Virus genome (UHGV): UHGV-0168748
Reading direction: 5' to 3' (one strand)
Origin: a virus
DNA: 44,209 nucleotides
Numbering within the stretch: the first letter of the stretch is position 1; each line of letters starts with the position of its first letter. Both the position numbers and the translations under genes were made by a program. Shown piece after piece: positions 1,647 through 32,388 of the stretch. The notes beneath the pieces are model-generated. The model had not been told where the DNA came from. It saw nothing but the letters and a program-made list of their open reading frames with translations, and did not search any database.

Positions 1647-1680
1647 ACCTACCTCCTTTCGGAGGTAGGTGCTTTTATTT
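1647..1680. terminator. bidirectional rho-independent terminator
   Basis: Stem CCTACCTCC / GGAGGTAGG with loop TTTC, A-run upstream and T-run downstream, between convergent genes. Confidence 0.7.
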
Positions 1681-2509
1681 ATTTCGCCAAGTCTGCTTCT
1701 TTTACAAAGATGCCGTCGGCGTTCAGGTAACCTTTACGGTCTTTGATTTCGTGCCACGCCAAAGAGAAGCAATGGCGAATGTCCAGTTTGTAATACAGCG
1801 CGAGACAAGCAAGGCAATACAAACCATGATCGAACAGGTTATCGTCTTTGTTAGTATTTAAGAAAGACGTGGAAAAAGATTTAGTTGCTTCCAGGTATTT
1901 TCGATGTGGGAATTTATGATCGTTTGCACAGGCTTCAACATTTGCAACATCACGAAGTTGCATAGTTAGGCCACTAGTTATAATATCGGCCGTCGTTAAG
2001 TGTTCGTCGTGGTATTCTTCACCCAGTTCCAGAATGTTCACCAGAACCACCAACGCATCACCGATACCATCCATGATCAGTTCAGGTTTGTTTTTACTGA
2101 TACCTGTTGCGATTTCACCAAACTCTTCAAAGAACTTCGTGATTTGTGTTTCCACTTTACCGTTGTCGAGGATACCACGTTCCTTAGACCAGCCTTTAAC
2201 ACGCTCTACACAGTTCTCGATAGAGTAGACCGGAACCGATACGGTGTGCATTACTGTACCGTTATATTCGGCACCTGTAAGTTTAAGCGGTGCTTCAATC
2301 GTTTCGATGTCCAGTTCCTGATTACCGGTGTGACGTTTACCTTCTACACGAATACGGTTAGTACCAGGATTTACCCCGATGGTGTAGATAGCATCAAACT
2401 GAATCGCTTTCTCGTCCATAGCGCGTAGTTGTGTGTTAACTTCTTCCAGGAAGTTACCTGGGTTAAGAACGATGTTGTAAATAGCGTTGATGTTAAAACG
2501 TTCGCCCAT
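1679..2509 (-). CDS. MazG-like nucleoside triphosphate pyrophosphohydrolase with ~135-aa N-terminal extension
   Basis: C-terminal half has MazG-type acidic motifs (FEEFGEI...DGIGDALVVLVNILELGEEYHDE, WHEIKDRKG); start moved to ATG 2509 with GGAG RBS, track ORF starts at upstream GTG. Confidence 0.5.
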   Translation of the reverse strand: MGERFNINAIYNIVLNPGNFLEEVNTQLRAMDEKAIQFDAIYTIGVNPGTNRIRVEGKRHTGNQELDIETIEAPLKLTGAEYNGTVMHTVSVPVYSIENCVERVKGWSKERGILDNGKVETQITKFFEEFGEIATGISKNKPELIMDGIGDALVVLVNILELGEEYHDEHLTTADIITSGLTMQLRDVANVEACANDHKFPHRKYLEATKSFSTSFLNTNKDDNLFDHGLYCLACLALYYKLDIRHCFSLAWHEIKDRKGYLNADGIFVKEADLAK

Positions 2510-2713
2510 TTTAAATCTCCTAACAAAAAAATAATAAAGTAAAAGGGTGCTTGCATAAGCACCCCAGGAACTGTTAAATTTTGCAAGCCCCGCCTGAGCA
2601 GTTATCGTCTTCCGTAGTTGGGTCAGCACCCTTCTCTACGGTCGCTTCCGGGTCTAAGCCAGGGATTGCAAATTCGTCAGTTTCTTTAACGGTTTCTACT
2701 TTAACTTCTTCAG

Positions 2714-3588: not shown

Positions 3589-4623
3589 TTATACTGCGAC
3601 GGGGGCCGCAATATGTGGATGAGCTTGATAATCGACTAATTCGAAGTCTTCGTATTTGTATTCGAAGATAGAATCAGGTTTACGTTTGATAACCAGTTTA
3701 GGTAGCGGGTAGGGTTCGCGTGTAAGTTGAAGTTTTGCCTGCTCCAGATGGTTAGAATACAGATGAACGTCTACACCACTATAAACCAACTCGTCCGGAA
3801 CCATGTTCAGTTGTTGAGCAACGATGTGTGTTAACAACGCGTACGAAGCGACGTTAAATGGCGCGCCGAGTAGGTAATCGTTGCTCCGCATCATGTAAAA
3901 ACATGAAAGCTTACGGCGTGGAATGCCCTCACGATCTAAAGTTTCATGAAGCCGCTCTTCATCATCAATATCTTCGTGATTAATAAGCGGTGCGCTCGCA
4001 AATTTTTCCGGCTCGTTTACTTCGTACCAATCCAGTCGTTCAAGCAGTGTCATTTCTGTAGTGTAGAATTGGAAATAGTTGTGGCACGGGTTAAGTGCCA
4101 TATCGTCCAGGTCGGCTACGTTCCAGGCACTAACGATAATGCGTCGGGAGTCAGGGTCTTCACGAAGCTGTTGGATAACTTTACTGATCTGGTCATGTGC
4201 TTTTTCATAAACCAAATACGTCGTACCATCTTCCTTCATATTCCCGATATACTTGTAACCACGTTGTATTAGTTGTTGTGTACGCCCTACGTCATGGCAT
4301 TCCACAACCTTACAATCGCGCCATTCACGCCACTGTTTACCATAAACAGGTCCTAATTCCCCTTCCGCATTCGCCCACTCGTTCCAGATTCTTACTCCGT
4401 TCTCTTGCAGGTACTTCACGTTAGTGTCGCCGTTCAAGAACCACAGCAGTTCGTGGATAATACTTTTCAGGTGAACTTTTTTCGTAGTGACTAATGGGAA
4501 GCCTTCTCTCAGGTCAAAACGTAACTGACGACCAAAGACAGAAAGAGTTCCTACGCCTGTGCGGTCTTCCTTAACAACACCGTTATCCAGAATGTCTTGC
4601 ATTAACGCTAAATACTGTTTCAT
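3589..4623 (-). CDS. thyA: thymidylate synthase (ThyA family) with two insertions
   Basis: [36 protein letters not shown], catalytic [17 protein letters not shown]; C-terminal 50 aa near-identical in pattern to E. coli ThyA. Confidence 0.9.
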
Positions 4624-12771: not shown

Positions 12772-12810
12772 GGGTAGGGTAAACCCTACCCGAACCTATT
12801 TATTTCTTTT
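12772..12810 (+). terminator. hairpin with T-run in plus orientation, inside a minus-strand gene block
   Basis: GGGTAGGGT-AAA-CCCTACCC followed by a T-rich tract on the plus strand only. Confidence 0.4.
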
Positions 12811-14296
12811 TCGTCAGGAACTTCGGTTCTAGACCATCAACAGCCATACCCAGAATGGTGCGTGCGGTTAGCGTACGCTTACCACCTTTCGTTTCCTGGT
12901 CTTTAAACATCCAGTATTCTACCGTGTTGTCCAGAATTTCATTCCAGTCCCATTTCTCGTCAATCAATTTGTAAATCTCACCCATGCTGAGATGATACTT
13001 CATTTCAAGACGATGGTAGTTGTTTTGCATATACGCAATAGCCGCAGTGATTTCCAATGCACGACGTAAGCGTGGGTTATCAGAAATCATATCGCGGATT
13101 GTCGTACGTTGGAATTTCACACCAGGCAGAATGTCCAGTTCTTTGATAGAACCACCACTACCGCTTGAGGTGAAACCAAAGTCCGATTTCTTCAACGTGT
13201 CACTTAAGTAGTGCCACAAGCTCAGGTGGTATAACAGACCCATTTCCTGAGAGAAGATCATTTGGAATTTCACACCGGTGTGACCGCCCTTCGCACGATA
13301 CTGCGTAAAGGTGATAATCTTCAAGTCATTTACCGACGCGTTCATCGCTTTAGAGCGAGACGTCGGATAAAGTTCTTCGTTAACACCGGTCTGCGCGTTA
13401 TAGCTCTGGTCTTTCTTCAGTTCCCCTGATTTCGTAGCAACGATAAACGAGTTCGTTAAAAAGCTAAGCTGGCGACGAGGAATACCTGCGAATTTTAAAT
13501 CATCGTTGGCATCGTCAAGAATTTTCGCATTTGCTTTTTGTGCTTGACGTCCCCCAGCCATGGCTTTACCGGAGTCATCAGCCATCTGTGCTACGAAGCC
13601 CATATAGAACCCACCACGTGCAAACGCTGATGGCCAACGGCTCATCATGTTCGATTTTTGCAGTGCGTCGTGGGCGTTCAGGATGTTCTGATCAGAATCC
13701 CCGATATCTGTTTTTGCGTGCTTGTCTTCCAGCGAACTGGAATGCCACTCAGACAGGGAGTCGATGGAATACAACCAGGGGTCCAGGATTTCTTTTAACT
13801 TACGACGAACCGGGTCAGGGAACGGTGTTACACGAGTTTTTCCAGACATATACTGCTTGAAGCGCTTTTCGACTTCATCACGAATATAGTCACTGTAATA
13901 CTGTTCCCCAGGCATTACGTCAGAACCGACCAGGTTATAACGCCCCTCGTGAATGAGTTCCAGAACAGAGGTTCCGTCATCGATACCGTTGGCGTTCATG
14001 GCAGAGATATACCCAGTTTCTAAACGATCGAGGGCAGCAGACACTTCTGTATCGTACTTAGAACCCCACTCTGCTTTATAGCGTTGTAGGATTTGGAAAA
14101 TACAGAAATCCAACAGTGTGGATTTAAACGTGTTACCGCGACCTGCGAAACCCATGATGTGGGCAAAACCACCGTTAAGGTAGTACAAACCATCTTCACC
14201 TTTTTCGTAGTTACCTAAGGCATGATCCATGATGGTATAAACGTTAAAACGTGGACGAATTACTTCACCGATAACTTGCTTAGTTGGGCCTGCCAT
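12800..14296 (-). CDS. hypothetical large protein (498 aa)
   Basis: Track ORF; contains GFAGRGNTFKST, which resembles but does not match a Walker A P-loop. Confidence 0.6.
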   Translation of the reverse strand: MAGPTKQVIGEVIRPRFNVYTIMDHALGNYEKGEDGLYYLNGGFAHIMGFAGRGNTFKSTLLDFCIFQILQRYKAEWGSKYDTEVSAALDRLETGYISAMNANGIDDGTSVLELIHEGRYNLVGSDVMPGEQYYSDYIRDEVEKRFKQYMSGKTRVTPFPDPVRRKLKEILDPWLYSIDSLSEWHSSSLEDKHAKTDIGDSDQNILNAHDALQKSNMMSRWPSAFARGGFYMGFVAQMADDSGKAMAGGRQAQKANAKILDDANDDLKFAGIPRRQLSFLTNSFIVATKSGELKKDQSYNAQTGVNEELYPTSRSKAMNASVNDLKIITFTQYRAKGGHTGVKFQMIFSQEMGLLYHLSLWHYLSDTLKKSDFGFTSSGSGGSIKELDILPGVKFQRTTIRDMISDNPRLRRALEITAAIAYMQNNYHRLEMKYHLSMGEIYKLIDEKWDWNEILDNTVEYWMFKDQETKGGKRTLTARTILGMAVDGLEPKFLTKKK

Positions 14297-18823: not shown

Positions 18824-19480
18824 CTATCTAAGAAACTTTTTAGCGAAGTCGAAATCGAGGGCATACTCCGTAACTGTTGCGTCGTACCCAGAATGAATCT
18901 GGTCGGACATTAGAAGGTATTGGTTTAGGTCAGGTGGAAGTATCCACGCATCACCTTGTTTAAATAACGAATAGCGCAAAGGGGAAGGGGTGATTTCTTC
19001 TGGCGCGGAGGTTCTTACTGCGGTCAGGTCATTTACGTTTAATGAAACCAAACGCACAGGATAATTTATCCCTATTTCCGTTAAGCACGTACGACGATCT
19101 AACCAAACGATTTCGCCGGGATAACGGTCGAGTTCCGACCACAGCTTGCAGCAAGCGGTATTAAAGTCCTTTCGTAGCTCTGGTGTTCCTTCTACATATC
19201 CGATACATTCTTCAGTAAGCGGGGCGTGGAGACGTTCAGGATTAACACTACGTATCCGTGCTACTGAGAAATAATCATCCAGTGGATCGCACCCCGCATT
19301 ACGTAAACCTATCACACCCCATAGCGCTTGTAAGGAGAAGCCTAAAGCAAGCTGCTCCAACTCTAGAGTTTCGTCGGAATAAGGGGCGCGAAAGCCCCAT
19401 TTACGATTAGCCGTTTCTAAGAAACGTTGTTGAAGGTACCGAGGGGCTTTTGTCATGACTTCGCTATAAACAACTAGCAT
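18824..19480 (-). CDS. hypothetical protein
   Basis: 218-aa track ORF. Confidence 0.55.
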   Translation of the reverse strand: MLVVYSEVMTKAPRYLQQRFLETANRKWGFRAPYSDETLELEQLALGFSLQALWGVIGLRNAGCDPLDDYFSVARIRSVNPERLHAPLTEECIGYVEGTPELRKDFNTACCKLWSELDRYPGEIVWLDRRTCLTEIGINYPVRLVSLNVNDLTAVRTSAPEEITPSPLRYSLFKQGDAWILPPDLNQYLLMSDQIHSGYDATVTEYALDFDFAKKFLR

Positions 19481-20994
19481 TCAAGCTCCTTATCTGTCAA
19501 TATTCGTTTGTTTGAATAATAACCGCACCACAATCCATGATATTTTTCCCCGATATAAACCAATGCATACTCGATATACTGACGTTCTGGACGACGGACA
19601 GCCACGTAAAAACGACCTTCGGGTTCTTTTAAGCGGTTAATTTCCGTACGTGTTGGAACATCGATACCACGAGTAAGGATGGCTTTAACCTTGTTTTTGC
19701 TTCCAGGGATATGGATAGTTACATCAAAACCTTTATCTACGTTACGATAAAAGTCTTTCTTCGGTTTACCTTTCTCATCGTAAAGCATGTCGGTAATATC
19801 GTTTAACACTACCGAGTTTTTCTGCTCCATTGCATCACGTAACCAACCTGCAAGTTCATCACGAATTGCAATGCAGCGATAAGACAATAACGCAGGACGA
19901 AGAATTCGTGTAATCGAAAGATCTTCAAACATCCACAAGTTTTTGTCTTCGCTAAAGTGCATTCTGTCGATAGGGATACCGTTACCTGCGGCTTCTGCAA
20001 ACTTCTTACGTTTTACGAATAAGTTAAAAACCACTGCGATGGGATCAAACTGACGTAAACGTGGTACACCTTCCCATGCTTTTGCAGAGTGGGTGTTTAC
20101 TAACTCGTATACGTTAGTCCACGGTTCTTTGGTAAACATCACGCAGAACTGCGCATCAGGGATGTATTTCCCGACGAAGACAATATCGTCTTTCTGTTTT
20201 GCGTGGTTCCCGCCAAACATGTAATACAGTTTCTCACCGTTTACAGTAACCGTGGGGTGTGGTTCATTTACCATCGGGTAACAAAACTTCGTGACGCAGA
20301 TTTCAGGGAATGCAGATAAATTGACGCCTTCACCAACAACTTCCGGTTGCTGATCTTCTTCAGGCATCTCGTCTTTTGACCAATACGGTGTATAGTCTAA
20401 CCCTTCGCCACGCGCAGAGATACTTGAACCTTTCCGTGCTAGTTCGTCTGCACGTTCATTTCCATAACGACCTGAGTGACCTTTAATTTTAAGGACACGG
20501 ATACCCTTCCCTTCTTTCTTTAACCGCTGTTTGACTTCCCACATCCGTTGGATTAGTTCCAAGTTCGCAATGGGTGTACCGTCTGCACGACGCCATCCTC
20601 GTGCTGCCCAACCATCAATCCAATCGTTATACGTGTTAACAACGTAAGAAGCGTCGATATAGATAACATAGTTTTTCGCAACGAAGGGCGCGTGTTCGAA
20701 AACAGTTAGAAAAGCCACGAGTTCTGCAACGTCAGAATGTGACATTTTTGGTACAGGAACAACGCCGTCAATAAACTCCACGGTTTCTGGCAAAGGAGGG
20801 AGTTTTTCATCCTTGTTTATCTGGCGGTATCCCGACGTCGTAATCCCCTCGGGAATAGAGGGATGGCGGTAAACCCGACCATCCTCAATCACTTCACGAT
20901 TAAATAAGTACCCATGAATCCCCGCTCCTGTACCGAGCGGGGAAGTCAAATGGCTACCGTCCGTGTAAATTACAGCAACATCAACATTCTTCAT
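19474..20994 (-). CDS. RNase HI-domain protein fused to ~300-aa C-terminal domain of unknown function
   Basis: N-terminal ~200 aa carry RNase H motifs IYTDGS, ELVAF, YIDASYV, LKIKGHSGRYGNERADELA; C-terminal domain unrecognised. Confidence 0.75.
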   Translation of the reverse strand: MKNVDVAVIYTDGSHLTSPLGTGAGIHGYLFNREVIEDGRVYRHPSIPEGITTSGYRQINKDEKLPPLPETVEFIDGVVPVPKMSHSDVAELVAFLTVFEHAPFVAKNYVIYIDASYVVNTYNDWIDGWAARGWRRADGTPIANLELIQRMWEVKQRLKKEGKGIRVLKIKGHSGRYGNERADELARKGSSISARGEGLDYTPYWSKDEMPEEDQQPEVVGEGVNLSAFPEICVTKFCYPMVNEPHPTVTVNGEKLYYMFGGNHAKQKDDIVFVGKYIPDAQFCVMFTKEPWTNVYELVNTHSAKAWEGVPRLRQFDPIAVVFNLFVKRKKFAEAAGNGIPIDRMHFSEDKNLWMFEDLSITRILRPALLSYRCIAIRDELAGWLRDAMEQKNSVVLNDITDMLYDEKGKPKKDFYRNVDKGFDVTIHIPGSKNKVKAILTRGIDVPTRTEINRLKEPEGRFYVAVRRPERQYIEYALVYIGEKYHGLWCGYYSNKRILTDKELEC

Positions 20995-20996
20995 TC

Positions 20997-21731
20997 TTAA
21001 TCCCTGGTTAATTGATCACGAATCTGTGGCGCAATATACTCGCCGGTTTTCAGTTCTTCGTGACAGGCTTTGGCACGTTCAAACCCGTATTCACGGGTGA
21101 CCAAAGCGAGGTGATAAATACGTGCCGTGGTGTAGGCTTCTTTTGCCGCATCCCACATAGCGTGGTGTTCAAAAGCCGGTTTACCGCGTGTCCAGTAAAC
21201 TTGCTCTACGGTTAAATCAGGCTCGAAACCAAACGCAAATGCTAAACGTTCTGCGGTACGATCGCTATCCAGTGCACTGAACTTACGGAATTTCCCTGGT
21301 GGAATATCGCATTGTGCAAACGCGTTCATGAAAATCGGCGCATCGAAATCAGGGCCGCGCATGGTAATAACAAATTCGTGTTTTGCGGTGATTTCTCCGA
21401 GCCACTTCTGCATTGCCCACAACGCATCAGGCAACGCTGTCGTCCCACCCCAGGCTTCTTCATACGCTTCACGAGACGGTGCGTATTCTGGTTCACCTTT
21501 ACCTTCCCACCATCCAACAGTTTGCGGGTCTTCGTGGAAAATTGCTTTTGCTTTAGGATCGTTAGGGTCGATACGAATATACGAGGACCCCACCATTTTC
21601 AACGTAGGGACGTCAAAAGCCACTAATCCCGCGCTTAACAAATAAGCATCAGGACGTAATGATTTGGTTTCTGCATCAGCACCAATAACCAGAGTTGGGG
21701 TATACGGCTGAACGATTTTTGGATAAGTCAT
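20997..21731 (-). CDS. DEDDh-family 3'-5' exonuclease (DnaQ-like fold)
   Basis: Exo I GADAET, Exo II DFDAPIF, Exo III HHAMWDA motifs. Confidence 0.6.
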   Translation of the reverse strand: MTYPKIVQPYTPTLVIGADAETKSLRPDAYLLSAGLVAFDVPTLKMVGSSYIRIDPNDPKAKAIFHEDPQTVGWWEGKGEPEYAPSREAYEEAWGGTTALPDALWAMQKWLGEITAKHEFVITMRGPDFDAPIFMNAFAQCDIPPGKFRKFSALDSDRTAERLAFAFGFEPDLTVEQVYWTRGKPAFEHHAMWDAAKEAYTTARIYHLALVTREYGFERAKACHEELKTGEYIAPQIRDQLTRD

Positions 21732-21769
21732 GTTAAAGTCTCCTGTCAGTATACATTAAAATAGCGGTA

Positions 21770-21816
21770 AACGTTAAAAAGAAAGACCCTCCTGTATCCC
21801 GAAGGATACAGGAGGG
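21770..21816 (-). terminator. rho-independent terminator
   Basis: CCCTCCTGTATCC-CGAA-GGATACAGGAGGG, U-run on minus strand. Confidence 0.7.
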
Positions 21817-21820
21817 AGTG

Positions 21821-22279
21821 TCAGTACAAACACGTCGTCAAGTATTGATTGTACGAATCGAGTAAGGTCTGACGGTCAGAACGGTAATTCCACAACAAAC
21901 TGTTAAGTTTTCGTGATAAGTCCCGACTAATTTCTTGCGGCGTTAAGGAACTTTCATCGAGTGATAAACGTTCAGGCACAACATGTAATTTCGGTAACTC
22001 ATAACGTTCGCAGAGTGGAGCCAACATCGGAGGGCTCCAGCCACGTTTAGCGGCTTGCTGATTTAAATTTCGTGTGTAGACATAAACGTAATAAGCATAG
22101 GTGTTGACGTCTGCAACATACTCACGCATTGCATCTTTGTCAATTTTCCAATTCACCATGATGGGTGGTGTCGGAGGAGGTTCCAATGGACGATAAGCTG
22201 CCCGTCTGACCTCTTCGCCGTAGCTATTACTCACCAAACCCATGAATACAACCATGATGAATAACAGCGTTTTCATCAA
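21821..22279 (-). CDS. secreted Pro-rich protein (signal peptide)
   Basis: N-terminal MMKTLLFIMVVFMGLVSNSYG then PLEPPPTPP; no lipobox cysteine. Confidence 0.5.
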   Translation of the reverse strand: MMKTLLFIMVVFMGLVSNSYGEEVRRAAYRPLEPPPTPPIMVNWKIDKDAMREYVADVNTYAYYVYVYTRNLNQQAAKRGWSPPMLAPLCERYELPKLHVVPERLSLDESSLTPQEISRDLSRKLNSLLWNYRSDRQTLLDSYNQYLTTCLY

Positions 22280-22783
22280 TCACTCCTTAGCAGACGTTAG
22301 CGTCTTTATAATCTCCTGTCGAAAACTGTTTGCATCTAAACTACCCACAGGTCTCGCCGATGCTTCTTTGCGTTGTTCTGGTGTTGAAGCCGGACTAACA
22401 GGAGTTTCTGGTTTTGTTGGCGTCAGATCCTTCGTCGAACCGCTCTCTTTCGATGGGTTGAACGTGCTTTCATATGGCGGTTTCTGGCCGAGACAAACGA
22501 AGAGTCTGTCGTATAACTTGCCATTATCTTCTTTCAGCTTATCACGATCTTGTTTCATCTCTTGATAAGACTGCGTCATATATGCGTCATGAGACTGCAC
22601 CGAAACGAGTGCGTGAAATTGTTGCACATACGCGTAGGAGACGAAGCCCGAATATGATAACAAGATCGTGATGATTAAAGTCATTATCTTGCTTGCTCTT
22701 GATACGTTTTCTCCTTCTCCTGGTTTAAATGCTTCCATTAACATCTGAAGGAAGAACGGAAGCACTTTAAGAAATGAACCCAT
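22280..22783 (-). CDS. membrane protein with one TM helix, periplasmic coiled coil and Pro/Ser/Thr-rich tail
   Basis: TM helix IMTLIITILLSYSGFVSYAYV followed by charged heptad-like region. Confidence 0.5.
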   Translation of the reverse strand: MGSFLKVLPFFLQMLMEAFKPGEGENVSRASKIMTLIITILLSYSGFVSYAYVQQFHALVSVQSHDAYMTQSYQEMKQDRDKLKEDNGKLYDRLFVCLGQKPPYESTFNPSKESGSTKDLTPTKPETPVSPASTPEQRKEASARPVGSLDANSFRQEIIKTLTSAKE

Positions 22784-29683: not shown

Positions 29684-29869
29684 CTAATTCCGCCACTCGC
29701 ATTCGCGTTGACGCCAAATCGAACCCCAGAATAGTTTAATCGAATACGATGAAACTACCCATAAAATCATTACCACGCAAAACATGACGTAAAGTATTGC
29801 CAAAATGACCATAAAGCCAAATCCCGCCGCGCTCATCGAACGACGGAACCAATCAGTTTGCATAAACAA
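29684..29869 (-). CDS. small membrane protein (61 aa)
   Basis: Track ORF with hydrophobic core FGFMVILAILYVMFCVVMILWVV; GAGGGAG upstream. Confidence 0.4.
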   Translation of the reverse strand: MFMQTDWFRRSMSAAGFGFMVILAILYVMFCVVMILWVVSSYSIKLFWGSIWRQRECEWRN

Positions 29870-32357
29870 TTTTTACTCCCTCGTTATACACCGCAGGTAA
29901 TGTCACCCCTTCCGGTTCAATGACACAGTACGATGCTTCGTTAAGTTTAGAATGGACTTCAGCTTCGTGGGAGACCACCAGTAACTGCGAGAACTCCCCT
30001 GAGTTTGCTAACGTTTTAATAAAACCAACCAGGTTATTACGGTGTTCTTCGTCCATACCCTCTGAGGGTTCATCCAATAGCAAAGGAAACTGATGTAATT
30101 TCAACGCTTTATACGCAGTCAGTCTGAACATCAGATTGAATATAGCACGTTGTGCCTTAGACCCTTTACGCACATCAGGAACGGGTTCAGGATGTGTTTT
30201 TAGTTGGACAGGAAAAGTATAATCCAAATCACCGTCGGTGAGATCACAAGGCATAACTCGCATGGGGTACGTCCAGACTTGTTCGATATAGCGCGTCATT
30301 AACTCTGTGATTCTGACGATAGCATTGTAAAAATACTTTCTGAGTACACCTTTTTCTGGCGAGAACGCCTGAATCATCAATTTGTTATTAAACTGCTGGG
30401 CTTGTAAATCCGCAAGTTCGCGTTCCAACGTATTGAGCTGATTCAGTTCACTTTCCATTTGACGATAACGCTCACGTGCTGTCGTAAACGCATCCAGTTT
30501 CCCTTCTCGTGCCCGTAAGAGTTCTTCGACAACTGTGTTTGTCAAAGTAACCTTAACGTCATTCTCTAACCGTTCGAATAACGCGCTAAAATCGTCTATA
30601 GCACGTTTAACGCTCTCTAGATAGGTAAGTGTCGTATTAGCTAACTCGTGCTCTCTACGACGCACTGAGAGCGTTTCTGTGGCTTTACCTAAACGCGATT
30701 GTTGGAAAGCAATTTTCTGTTGTAAAGCACCATCGACGTTACCCACAGCAGCTACCGCATCTTGCCATTCTTTTTCTGCCTTCACTAACCGTTGACGGGT
30801 TTCATGATATTCAATAGCAGAATACAGCTCACTGTCAAAAGCCGCGCAGAGACTTCCGAACTGTTCGCGTGATTCTGTAAAGACATTACGTTCTTGTAGA
30901 CACTTAAAGAACATGCTTAAAACCGGGTCCTTTGAGTACGTCAACACGATTTCACGAACCTGACGCATATACGTTACATCAGATTCCAGTTCGACACGAT
31001 CGCGTAATATACTGTCTAACTGTGTTTGAAGCTCCGTACGTTGTTGCTGTTGGCCTCTAATCGAGGTTTCAAGTTCAGACAAAGAACGCGTAACCCCAGG
31101 TCGAAATTTAAACCGACATTGCGGGCAATCTACTTCTGCTGTTTCCAGATAGTGATTTCGTTCGTGGTTCAAGTTTTGTAAAACATTCTCTACGCGCTGG
31201 AGTCTATCTCGCAATCCTGCGGTCTTCTGATCCATCACCAGTAGACGTTCTTCCAAAACGTTGAGCTTTTCGGTTGAATGAATGGCGTCCAGTGTTGTTC
31301 CCAGTCGTTGGCCCCAAACGCGTGCATCGGTTGCAGCACGTAGCTGGTCTAAATTCGCACTCTCACTAAACAGTCCAGGAAAGAGATGCTCGGTGTCCCA
31401 TTTGGTAAGCACTTCACGTAAACGTGCGAGAGTGTTCTTGAGACCCTCGTGATTGCGCATCAGGTAATCCTGTCGCGTTGACTCGTCCATCAATAACGAC
31501 AGATCTTTATTCAACATTGATACTTCCGTTTCTGCTGAAACGACAGCTTCGCGTGCTGTGGCTTCATTGTGTCGTGCGTTCAGTATCTGTTCGTCGGTAG
31601 GCAAACCACCACGATGTTGTAATATTGCGTCGATAGTTGGACCTAAGCCGTTTAATAACGCCTGGATTGATTCGATAGTAACGCCACGATTTAAACCCGG
31701 TAGCTGTTCGATTTGTCGGTTCAGTTCGCGTAAATCCGATTCCAAGCCTTTTAATCTTACCGCTAACTGTTGACGTTCTTCTTCATTTTCAATAACACGT
31801 GTTCGTAACTCTGCGATCTTACGACTGGTAATTTCAATGCCACCGTTTAAGACGGTGAGGTTTTTCCGCAATCTCTGATAGAACCCTAGCGCGTAAGTAA
31901 GGTCAGAGGTACTTAAACGGTAAAACCATTTACGACGTAATTCCGTTCCCGCGTCCGTTAACAACACCTCACCGTTTAACAATTCTTTAATTTCTTTCGT
32001 AATACCAGTGATTTCTTCAACGCGTGAATTGTAAACCTTTGCGTTACCTTGCTCGACAATCTTCGTTCCCGTAGTGAGATTCTCAATATCGCAAACCAAC
32101 GAGTTGCCTTTACGGGCAACTTTGAAACGGTAACGTTGATCGCCGACTAAACAATAATTCGTGTAAGAACCCCCATCCCTGAATTCTGTTTTAGCCGGAG
32201 CTAAGGGCAAAAATACGGACAGTAAACTGGTCTTCCCACAACCGTTCCCACCCAGGATAATCGTTGTCGGTGACTGGATAGTGAAATCGAACGTTTCAAT
32301 TTCGTGCAATCCCATCCCCGTAAAACCTTTGAGTACAATACGTTCAACTTTTAGCAT
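29853..32357 (-). CDS. Rad50/SbcC-like SMC-family ATPase with CxxC zinc hook
   Basis: Walker A GGNGCGKTSLL, long coiled coil with central CPQC, Walker B LLLDEPSEGMD, H-loop VVSHE; start moved to ATG 32357 with GGAGGTG RBS. Confidence 0.7.
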   Translation of the reverse strand: MLKVERIVLKGFTGMGLHEIETFDFTIQSPTTIILGGNGCGKTSLLSVFLPLAPAKTEFRDGGSYTNYCLVGDQRYRFKVARKGNSLVCDIENLTTGTKIVEQGNAKVYNSRVEEITGITKEIKELLNGEVLLTDAGTELRRKWFYRLSTSDLTYALGFYQRLRKNLTVLNGGIEITSRKIAELRTRVIENEEERQQLAVRLKGLESDLRELNRQIEQLPGLNRGVTIESIQALLNGLGPTIDAILQHRGGLPTDEQILNARHNEATAREAVVSAETEVSMLNKDLSLLMDESTRQDYLMRNHEGLKNTLARLREVLTKWDTEHLFPGLFSESANLDQLRAATDARVWGQRLGTTLDAIHSTEKLNVLEERLLVMDQKTAGLRDRLQRVENVLQNLNHERNHYLETAEVDCPQCRFKFRPGVTRSLSELETSIRGQQQQRTELQTQLDSILRDRVELESDVTYMRQVREIVLTYSKDPVLSMFFKCLQERNVFTESREQFGSLCAAFDSELYSAIEYHETRQRLVKAEKEWQDAVAAVGNVDGALQQKIAFQQSRLGKATETLSVRRREHELANTTLTYLESVKRAIDDFSALFERLENDVKVTLTNTVVEELLRAREGKLDAFTTARERYRQMESELNQLNTLERELADLQAQQFNNKLMIQAFSPEKGVLRKYFYNAIVRITELMTRYIEQVWTYPMRVMPCDLTDGDLDYTFPVQLKTHPEPVPDVRKGSKAQRAIFNLMFRLTAYKALKLHQFPLLLDEPSEGMDEEHRNNLVGFIKTLANSGEFSQLLVVSHEAEVHSKLNEASYCVIEPEGVTLPAVYNEGVKIVYAN

Positions 32358-32388
32358 ACCCACCTCCATAATCACGGAGTGTGGTGTA

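Follow-up and report, generated by a model that had tools for sequence, protein, structure and literature searches.

The DNA analysed here, the 44,209 nt of UHGV virus genome UHGV-0168748 (referred to as the window), carries a nuclease gene directly before the gene for an RNase H fusion protein, which raises the question what such an exonuclease does for the phage and whether the two enzymes act together. An earlier note on this DNA had assigned the 244-residue product to the DEDDh 3′-5′ exonucleases, had linked it with the RNase H fusion in a two-enzyme module, and had suggested that it serves replication or degrades host signalling nucleotides. The fold, family membership, intactness of the active site, gene order and phylogenetic distribution are established here; substrate, compartment and biological role we infer. 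The reading we prefer, at a probability of roughly 0.45, is that of an accessory exonuclease of the DexA/Rv2179c family with a "finishing" function at 3′ ends, which would not be the replicative proofreader and would not be required as a subunit by the RNase H-like protein.

The locus and its transcription unit

The reading frame is preceded by a ribosome-binding site (Table 1), its product has a nearest homologue of 90% identity (E 1e-152), and an identical protein is indexed in 33 blocks of a public assembly collection (24 contigs read); together with the Pfam and phrog matches given below this speaks against a chance open reading frame, and the 244-residue gene of the earlier note stands, with an ATG start. 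Its placement needed correction. Both genes lie on the minus strand with the exonuclease on the 5′ side, where transcription reaches it before the RNase H fusion; it is "downstream" in plus-strand coordinates only, and the gap between the stop codon of the one and the start of the other is not 3 but 2 nt (GA, 20996-20995).

Table 1. Features of the exonuclease locus, in coordinates of the window
Feature	Position	Strand	Basis
CDS, DexA/Rv2179c-family DEDDh 3′-5′ exonuclease, 244 aa	20997..21731 (stop codon included)	minus	ORF list, ATG start
Exo I, residues 17-23 (GADAETK), catalytic D19 and E21	21663..21683	minus	alignments
Family signature T71-x3-W75 (TVGWW)	21507..21521	minus	alignments
Exo II, residues 125-136 (RGPDFDAPIFMN), catalytic D130	21324..21359	minus	alignments
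Exo III, residues 189-198 (HHAMWDAAKE), H189 and D194, His-type H-x4-D	21138..21167	minus	alignments
AGGAG ribosome-binding site, 8 nt 5′ of the exonuclease ATG	21740..21744	minus	read from sequence
AATGTATACT, promoter-like motif common to relatives (putative function)	21748..21757	minus	aligned upstream regions
Intrinsic-terminator-like hairpin (13-bp stem, TTCG loop, T run)	21777..21816	minus	terminator scan
506-aa RNase H fusion, next gene in the unit	19474..20994	minus	starts 2 nt past the exonuclease stop codon

The terminator-like hairpin, which has a counterpart at the same site in phage SPN3US and in the related locus L020, closes the upstream genes, so that the exonuclease gene would open a new unit. 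Between hairpin and start codon, alignment shows the window, SPN3US and L020 to have the motif (A/G)AT(G/A)TATA(A/C/T)T in common, at equal distance from the exonuclease ATG; in the window, the TATACT hexamer of a sigma-70-like match (9/12) overlaps with it. The terminator, the conserved promoter-like motif and the 2-nt gap point to co-expression with the RNase H fusion, and a common transcript with coupled translation is probable for the two genes. An Rfam search of the window found nothing. Genes for MazG and thymidylate synthase (ThyA) are present in the same window.

Family membership, active site and predicted fold

In the profile search that the earlier note had proposed as a check, the protein exceeded the gathering score of Pfam PF16473 (Rv2179c-like 3′-5′ exoribonuclease; 43.8 bits, E 2.9e-11, cut-off 27), with residues 19-203 aligned to positions 6-174 of the 177 in the model. 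T4 DexA and the orthologues from SPN3US and pVa-21 pass the same model. The window protein also matches phrog_255 with E 6e-45. NCBIfam gave no match and Pfam RNase_T (PF00929) was not reported for the exonuclease. Among PDB sequences the sole phmmer match was IspE, which was rejected as spurious, and the PDB profile search yielded only a weak match to RNase T (E 0.099) in which Exo II and Exo III are aligned. With the 3.3-kb region as query, megablast found no match in the phage collection; relatives were found by protein-level searches only. These include SPN3US gp206 (68% identity) and orthologues from Erwinia, Cronobacter, Proteus and Vibrio jumbo phages, which at 33–68% identity are of equal length and occupy the same place before the RNase H fusion; the source of the window is an SPN3US-like nucleus-forming jumbo phage. 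For SPN3US gp206 the literature search yielded nothing of relevance. Existing annotations of the orthologues read "exonuclease", "3'-5' exoribonuclease" or "putative endodeoxyribonuclease"; the last label, which is widespread, is not supported by the family assignment, by which "DexA/Rv2179c-family 3'-5' exonuclease" appears to be the appropriate name.

Conservation was judged in an alignment of 24 close homologues (A1), in another of 12 diverse family members including T4 DexA (A2), and in a larger set of 173 family sequences; the three Exo motifs hold in A1, in A2 and in 164 of the 173. The Exo I residues D19 and E21 are invariant in A2 and kept in 170 and 169 of the 173 sequences, respectively. 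Exo II has its core F129-D130 within RGPDFD, with G126, P127 and F129 invariant in A1 and D130 invariant in A2 (kept in 170/173), while H189 and D194 of Exo III, which is of the His and not of the Tyr type, are invariant in both alignments. A further signature, T-x3-W together with R-T before Exo III, was derived in this analysis and not taken from Pfam: T71 and W75 do not vary in either alignment and are present in 171 and 172 of the 173 sequences, respectively, R158 and T159 are invariant in A2, and the four residues are retained in 159–172 of the larger set. The pentad D19/E21/D130/H189/D194 aligns with D7/E9/D119/H186/D191 of DexA, which have been equated with D12/E14/D103/H162/D167 of the E. 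coli epsilon subunit (PMC12153337). The earlier note had let its assignment depend on conservation of the catalytic residues upon alignment, and all five are conserved.

The AlphaFold2 (AF2) model of the protein, a confident one (pLDDT 91.4), has the RNase H-like α/β fold, with 133 PDB matches at E≤0.001 in Foldseek, headed by DexA, RNase T, Exo I, the exonuclease domain of DinG and Orn. Membership in the DEDDh 3′-5′ exonuclease superfamily is thus borne out by the motifs, the Pfam match, the predicted fold and the correspondence of the five catalytic residues to those of T4 DexA and E. coli epsilon, and the gene product is apparently an ordinary exonuclease of the DexA/Rv2179c family, predicted to be active. 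By analogy to DexA, whose dimer has been described (PMC12153337), and to RNase T, it is probably a homodimer.

T4 DexA (PDB 8KEL/8KEN), likewise phage-encoded, of about 230 residues and non-essential in T4, is the best solved match (E 7.5e-8, TM 0.61/0.67); besides PF16473 and the identical catalytic pentad, the two proteins have the signatures T-x3-WW and RG-x-FD-x-PI in common. The identity is, however, only about 19%, the profile–profile match is limited to the N-terminal half, and the window protein possesses an extra C-terminal helical region (residues 217-243 in the AF2 model). Opposite DexA W152 and D169, residues for activity on the 5hmC DNA of T4, it has S152 and G168, although the alignment is approximate there. 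In a neighbour-joining tree a 54-member jumbo-phage clade excludes DexA, whose nearest neighbours are generic family members of about 190 residues; judged by identity and tree, the window protein would therefore belong to another subfamily and is not close to DexA. The settings differ as well: the DexA gene is not located beside an RNase H gene, and the window phage is nucleus-forming, its relative Asesino leaving the host DNA intact (PMC11724907).

Rv2179c of Mycobacterium tuberculosis, which gives PF16473 its name, is also of the DEDDh type, and its domain model is matched above the gathering score; it is a bacterial protein, shorter than the phage protein, and its named activity is on RNA. 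A solved Rv2179c chain was not retrieved in the sequence or profile searches of the PDB. E. coli RNase T (the second-best structural match of the window protein), oligoribonuclease and Pol III epsilon are alike in fold and in the H-x4-D form of Exo III, but their sequence similarity is marginal.

Two further relatives are known from nucleus-forming phages, in which they are likewise accessory. Erwinia phage RAY gp064 matches the HMM built from the 173 family sequences with E 1.5e-23 and is thus a distant member; a 409-residue Goslar protein with a long N-terminal extension joins the family by its BFVD fold match. Their subfamily differs from that of the window protein; neither BLASTP nor phmmer gave a pairwise match, and neither of the two is encoded beside an RNase H gene. 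RAY gp064 was localised as a "putative exonuclease" by Prichard et al. and is cytoplasmic (PMC10299810); of this pair it is the only one with known localisation.

Distribution and the RNase H neighbour

The RNase H fusion consists of an RNase HI domain (about residues 1-200; Pfam RNase_H E 8e-21, phrog_3265 E 1e-169) and an uncharacterised C-terminal region of 300 residues; in the PDB fold search its AF2 model gave only RNase HI matches, which cover the N-terminal third, so that the C-terminal domain is unassigned. It is a homologue of phiKZ gp155/Nlp2, tblastn reaching the phiKZ-like phages, and as such a core gene of nucleus-forming phages (cg47, phiKZ gp155). The phiKZ protein is imported into the phage nucleus (bioRxiv 10.1101/2024.03.27.586873).

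The window and each of the 11 related loci that were examined (SPN3US, pVa-21, L010, L012, L014, L019, L020, L021-L023 and L024) have the exonuclease gene first and the RNase H fusion second, down to about 32% identity, and every examined copy of the exonuclease subfamily precedes a homologue of the RNase H fusion. In 10 of the 11 loci the two genes are closely spaced, with anything between an 11-nt overlap and a 14-nt gap; in pVa-21 the gap is 166 nt. The reverse does not hold: four other chimallivirus lineages, represented by PCH45, the phiKZ-like PA_ZH1, Ea35-70 and Proteus phage 10, possess the RNase H fusion and lack the exonuclease at the syntenic site. A tblastn search at E≤10 had no phiKZ-like phage among the matches listed, and the core-gene table of the published core-genome paper, searched as text in the supplementary files, contains no exonuclease. 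The gene is a clade-specific accessory of one chimallivirus branch, that of SPN3US, Asesino, CR5, pVa-21 and their relatives. Since four lineages have the RNase H fusion without it, the exonuclease is an accessory gene and not an obligate partner; and as synteny extends over the whole block, the adjacency of the two genes says little for a functional partnership. Of the "two-enzyme module" there remains the probable co-transcription and coupling, in an order kept in the window and 11 loci; a necessary pairing does not, given the four lineages and a block that is syntenic anyway.

At the same locus, full-length variants without the Exo I or Exo III residues occur in at least two lineages, and an A-for-E substitution is common to three mutually divergent clusters (27–46% identity). 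That catalytically dead variants are kept suggests selection for something beyond catalysis.

Possible roles of the exonuclease

In the preferred reading, that of an accessory finishing exonuclease, the gene would be an insertion at the head of the transcription unit, immediately followed by the core RNase H-like gene. Its product would be a metal-dependent enzyme which, judging from its family, takes nucleotides singly off 3′ ends that are free, whether in single-stranded DNA, single-stranded RNA or short oligonucleotides; it may thereby trim 3′ tails and convert the leftovers of endonucleolytic enzymes, such as the RNase H-like protein and SbcCD, to mononucleotides. Such finishing might take place during phage replication, recombination and transcription, as would be expected from co-expression with the RNase H-like protein, given the nuclear import of the phiKZ orthologue. 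Any role in replication has to be a dispensable one because most chimalliviruses are without the gene. Points that count against the reading are that the adjacency of the two genes may be mere inherited synteny and, for a nuclear site of action, that the distant member RAY gp064 is cytoplasmic (PMC10299810). A purely enzymatic finisher also does not account for the full-length dead copies.

Two closer forms of association with the RNase H-like protein have been considered. The exonuclease may be a dedicated partner of this Nlp2 homologue, co-imported with it, clearing oligonucleotides and 3′ tails from the nucleus, with a contact important enough for dead copies to be maintained; this is rather improbable. 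Host Orn, RNase T and Exo I are presumably excluded from the phage nucleus, and if the proposal were true the exonuclease would be the nuclear substitute for one or other of them. An obligate complex, in which the exonuclease binds the fusion so that RNA–DNA hybrids nicked by the RNase H are degraded by the exonuclease from the 3′ ends thus created, is improbable. It would make structural subunits of the dead variants, whose persistence in at least two lineages it accommodates, and it draws on translational coupling and on an order conserved over deep divergence (to about 32% identity). However, in most chimalliviruses the RNase H fusion works without the exonuclease, neither homologue search found a fused exonuclease–RNase H protein (a "Rosetta stone"), 166 nt separate the two genes in pVa-21, and in an entirely syntenic block adjacency is little informative.

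Doubtful, but the most serious competitor to the finishing exonuclease, is an enzyme outside the phage nucleus which, like T4 DexA, would turn host DNA and RNA fragments into mononucleotides for phage DNA synthesis, alongside MazG and ThyA, both encoded within the window. Proteins that are not specifically recognised for import are generally kept out of the phage nucleus by default, which favours this site of action. DexA, the closest solved structure and a member of the same Pfam family, has host-DNA scavenging as one documented role (PMC12153337), and RAY gp064 is diffusely cytoplasmic in infection (PMC10299810); RAY gp064 is, however, of the other subfamily and gives no direct phmmer match to the window protein, so that its localisation is weak evidence. 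Scavenging was downgraded because Asesino, whose orthologue is 63% identical, shows no noticeable degradation of host DNA; Vibrio phage Ariel does degrade it (PMC11724907). The DexA residues for 5hmC DNA are not conserved in the window protein either. The phiKZ-like phages, which do degrade host DNA, are without the gene at the syntenic site, and none of them is among the tblastn matches listed (E≤10).

A nuclease that destroys immune nucleic-acid signals or effectors of the host (linearised cyclic oligonucleotides, retron msDNA, guide RNAs) would fit an accessory, lineage-specific gene, as counter-defence genes often are, and nucleus-forming phages do face RNA-targeting and signalling defences (PMC11724907), although this is a general consideration only. 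Yet the exonuclease has no match in PADLOC or NCBIfam, and its gene is stably placed inside a core replication and structural block rather than in a variable region. The members of the family characterised so far are known to act on 3′ ends of linear molecules, and DEDDh enzymes, needing a free 3′ end, cannot open cyclic oligonucleotides. Counter-defence is accordingly very unlikely, and the degradation of host signalling nucleotides envisaged by the earlier note was not borne out.

Service in replication, the other role named there, is unlikely in the sense of proofreading. Group-1 jumbo-phage DNA polymerases are without a fused 3′-5′ exonuclease, which is encoded elsewhere (Iyer et al. 2021; PMC7824862), and the catalytic pentad is the same as in E. 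coli epsilon; a stand-alone, epsilon-like proofreading subunit of such a divergent family B polymerase might thus be imagined. Against it stands SPN3US gp222, the product of a second "DNA polymerase" gene, which matches the N-terminal, exonuclease part of the PolB profile (phrog_262 positions 91-369) and whose DxE, WN..FD and Yx3D (DEDDy) motifs are invariant in SPN3US, pVa-21, Bosolaphorus, AgentSmith and RSF1. Proteins of the gp222 type occur in 310 jumbo-phage records, the phiKZ-like phages included, whereas the DexA-like gene is restricted to one clade and missing at the syntenic site in the four other lineages. As gp222 and its universal homologues carry the PolB exonuclease motifs, the proofreader role was rejected for the DexA-like protein, for which it is scarcely credible; the gp222-type PolB fragment appears to be the obvious proofreader, and a phage with a PolB-type DEDDy proofreader of its own has no need of an epsilon-like one.

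The proofreader that the split jumbo-phage DNA polymerase seemed to lack is not the DexA-like gene; the universal PolB fragment fits that role. The practical value of the assignment lies mostly in the annotation of the orthologues. On present evidence the gene encodes a dispensable, clade-specific accessory nuclease; should it prove to act together with the RNase H-like protein in the phage nucleus, it would fill in one part of how nucleic acids are kept in order in this compartment, a process still poorly understood.

Family, active site and fold

The 244-residue protein, assigned to the DEDDh exonucleases in the earlier note, belongs there by its motifs, its profile match and its fold, and the assignment can be narrowed to the DexA/Rv2179c family. 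The profile search proposed at the time and an alignment of the catalytic residues bear this out: Pfam PF16473 ("Rv2179c-like 3'-5' exoribonuclease domain") matches residues 19-203 (E 2.9e-11) at 43.8 bits (cut-off 27 bits), and the full D-E-D-H-D pentad is kept in 164 of 173 family sequences. Among 24 close homologues D19, E21, D130, H189 and D194 vary hardly or not at all; together with T71, W75, R158 and T159 they are invariant in an alignment with distant members and T4 DexA. PHROGs returns phrog_255 "exonuclease" (E 6e-45). AlphaFold gives a confident model (pLDDT 91.4, pTM 0.88), whose best match among solved folds is T4 DexA (8KEL; E 7.5e-8, TM 0.61/0.67), followed by RNase T, exonuclease I, the DinG exonuclease domain and oligoribonuclease. 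By every testable criterion the protein is a member of the DEDDh superfamily and of PF16473; it is a known kind of protein, whose orthologues in public records are already labelled exonuclease or exoribonuclease.

The pentad aligns with D7/E9/D119/H186/D191 of T4 DexA, equated in the DexA structure paper with D12/E14/D103/H162/D167 of E. coli epsilon (PMC12153337), and DexA likewise falls into PF16473 (E 2.4e-22). However, an orthologue of DexA it is not: identity is about 19%, the jumbo-phage proteins form a 54-member clade of their own, and W152 and D169 of DexA, which are tied to the handling of 5hmC-DNA, align with S152 and G168.

Gene arrangement and source phage

The open reading frame of the earlier note was found as described, on the minus strand. 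The gene for the RNase H fusion shares this strand, which puts the exonuclease gene 5' of it and first in transcription; "downstream" holds only in plus-strand coordinates, and the reported 3-nt gap is 2 nt (GA), between the TAA stop and the ATG of the fusion. The ribosome-binding site is AGGAG, 8 nt 5' of the start codon. Further upstream, a terminator-like hairpin closes two small genes; it is also present before the orthologous gene in SPN3US and in the metagenomic relative L020, where the AATGTATACT motif recurs at equal distance from the start. Hairpin and motif could be a terminator and a phage promoter element, so that the exonuclease appears, from these recurring signals, to head a transcription unit running into the RNase H fusion. 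The two abutting small genes, likewise conserved in SPN3US, may encode a membrane or envelope-acting pair.

Features in the window and at related loci
Feature	Sequence	Coordinates	Strand	Remarks
Exonuclease	window	20997-21731	-	244 aa, ATG start, from ORF list
RNase H fusion	window	19474-20994	-	506 aa
Terminator-like hairpin	window	21816-21787	-	terminator scan: strong, GC-rich, 13-bp stem, TTCG loop, T run
AATGTATACT motif	window	within 21748-21816	-	between hairpin and ribosome-binding site, ~20 nt 5' of start codon
Small gene	window	21821-22279	-	membrane-spanning segment, coiled coil, weak DivIC match; phrog_8719 (function unknown)
Small gene	window	22280-22783	-	N-terminal signal-like hydrophobic segment; phrog_8165 (function unknown)
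MazG-like pyrophosphatase	window	1679-2629		316 aa
Thymidylate synthase	window	3589-4623		344 aa
UvsX-like recombinase	window	12800-14296		498 aa
SbcC-like protein	window	29853-32375		840 aa
RNase H fusion homologue	L010	5822-7561		579 aa
Degenerate cluster P0011	L020	5001-5705		V-K-H-H-D
Degenerate cluster P0032	L019	79-768		R-A-D-H-E
Degenerate cluster P0034	L024	5001-5726		D-A-D-H-E
Degenerate cluster P0035				R-A-D-H-E
RAY gp064	L003	13675-14427		labelled "putative exodeoxyribonuclease VIII"
SPN3US gp222	L009	41224-43008		N-terminal region, invariant DEDDy exonuclease motifs, motif-A-like D..YPS
SPN3US gp248	L009	11544-13823		PF20286 "divergent PolB"; PF20287 SH3 protein gene before it

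Megablast against deposited phages gave no close DNA relative of the region. By tblastn, exonuclease homologues occur in 66 records, essentially all of jumbo phages of about 220-250 kb: identity is 68% to SPN3US-like Salmonella, Proteus and Escherichia phages, 46-63% to Erwinia phages (e.g. Asesino, phiEaH2, Kwan), 45% to Cronobacter phage CR5 and about 35% to Vibrio phage pVa-21. The identical protein is found in 33 blocks of a public assembly collection (24 contigs read). Gene order around the exonuclease agrees with SPN3US, and the remaining genes, encoding a UvsX-like recombinase, an SbcC-like protein, MazG, thymidylate synthase, virion proteins and a transglycosylase, fit a nucleus-forming jumbo phage (Chimalliviridae).

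Relation to the RNase H fusion

Of the fusion's RNase HI catalytic residues, E91, D114, H173 and D183 are invariant on alignment and D12 nearly so. The C-terminal ~300 residues (about 220-506) fold confidently in the model (pLDDT mostly 85-95), and in chimalliviruses this domain is a conserved part of a nuclear core protein; a full-length PDB fold search matched solved structures only to the RNase HI part, the N-terminal third. In a homologue on a metagenomic jumbo-phage contig (L010) no Pfam RNase_H domain is detected and the C-terminal region is retained (BLASTP E 2e-12); the exonuclease encoded upstream has the full pentad.

The earlier note had suggested a two-enzyme module; the order of the two genes is constant, and strict co-occurrence fails. 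The exonuclease precedes the RNase H fusion at 11 of 11 related loci examined, with overlaps of 1 nt (SPN3US, L020), 4 nt (L012) and 11 nt (L014) or gaps of 1 nt (L019), 2 nt (L024, and L021-L023 with the identical exonuclease), 14 nt (L010) and 166 nt (pVa-21). The fusion corresponds to phiKZ gp155, listed as cg47 in the published core genome of chimalliviruses (PMC10299810). By tblastn it is far wider spread, reaching phiKZ-like phages, PCH45, Ea35-70 (RAY-like) and Proteus phage 10. There the block runs from an opposite-strand virion protein through one or two small genes to the fusion, with no gene of about 240 aa before it; in a text search of that paper's supplementary files the word "exonuclease" turned up only with RAY gp064 and nowhere in the core-gene table (PMC10299810). 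Judged by this distribution the exonuclease is a clade-specific accessory gene inserted into a conserved block, and since the whole block is syntenic, adjacency is weak evidence of functional partnership.

That the module idea keeps some probability is mainly due to persistent degenerate copies. Four clusters (clustering at 50% identity) of the jumbo-phage clade lack catalytic residues; at the three loci examined (P0011, P0032, P0034) the proteins are full-length and precede the RNase H fusion at the equivalent place. Mutual identity of only 27-46% among the three A-for-E clusters (P0032, P0034, P0035) indicates that the degenerate state has persisted, so the copies seem to be maintained rather than recently decayed, which hints at a non-catalytic role, e.g. 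partner binding.

Substrate and site of action

An epsilon-like proofreading role was considered and failed. Iyer et al. (PMC7824862) noted that in these phages the divergent family B polymerase has no fused 3'-5' exonuclease, one being encoded elsewhere. In SPN3US the polymerase is split over two distant genes, the PF20286 polymerase gp248 and a second "DNA polymerase", gp222. The latter has no Pfam match whatsoever; it matches the N-terminal/exonuclease part of the PolB profile phrog_262 (positions 91-369) and carries the motifs YDVET, WNHQFD and YNMMD, with D152, E154, W261, N262, D266, Y395 and D399 invariant in SPN3US, pVa-21, Bosolaphorus, AgentSmith and RSF1. Homologues occur in 310 jumbo-phage records, phiKZ-like phages included. 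A gp222-type DEDDy protein, seen in relatives since the 44-kb window does not reach the polymerase genes, would be the natural proofreader, beside which a DexA-like enzyme is not needed.

DEDDh enzymes require a free 3' end. Nothing supports the cyclic-nucleotide role implied by the suggested breakdown of host signalling nucleotides, and PADLOC gave no match for the exonuclease. The protein would act as a finishing 3'-end exonuclease on single-stranded tails and oligonucleotides from phage nucleic-acid transactions; the biochemical part of this model is well supported, at a probability of roughly 0.9. Evidence on where it would act points both ways, a nuclear, RNase H-linked setting being only slightly favoured over cytoplasmic salvage. 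Speaking for the former, gp155/Nlp2 of phiKZ, orthologous to the co-transcribed RNase H-like protein, is imported into the phage nucleus (bioRxiv 10.1101/2024.03.27.586873), and the fusion in the window has conserved RNase HI catalytic residues. Salvage in the cytoplasm draws on the documented host-DNA scavenging of T4 DexA (PMC12153337) and on the diffusely cytoplasmic RAY gp064 (PMC10299810), yet in Asesino, which has a 63%-identical orthologue, host DNA stays visibly intact (PMC11724907), which argues against scavenging. RAY gp064 joins the exonuclease family by family HMM (E 1.5e-23), with no direct similarity to the exonuclease by BLASTP or phmmer; it is of the same PF16473-type family, of another subfamily and at another locus, as is the Goslar protein A0A482GDY9 grouped with it. 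DexA-like exonucleases thus seem to have entered nucleus-forming phages on two or more occasions. For the exonuclease itself, the outcome is a corrected annotation, with the proofreading and signalling-nucleotide ideas excluded.
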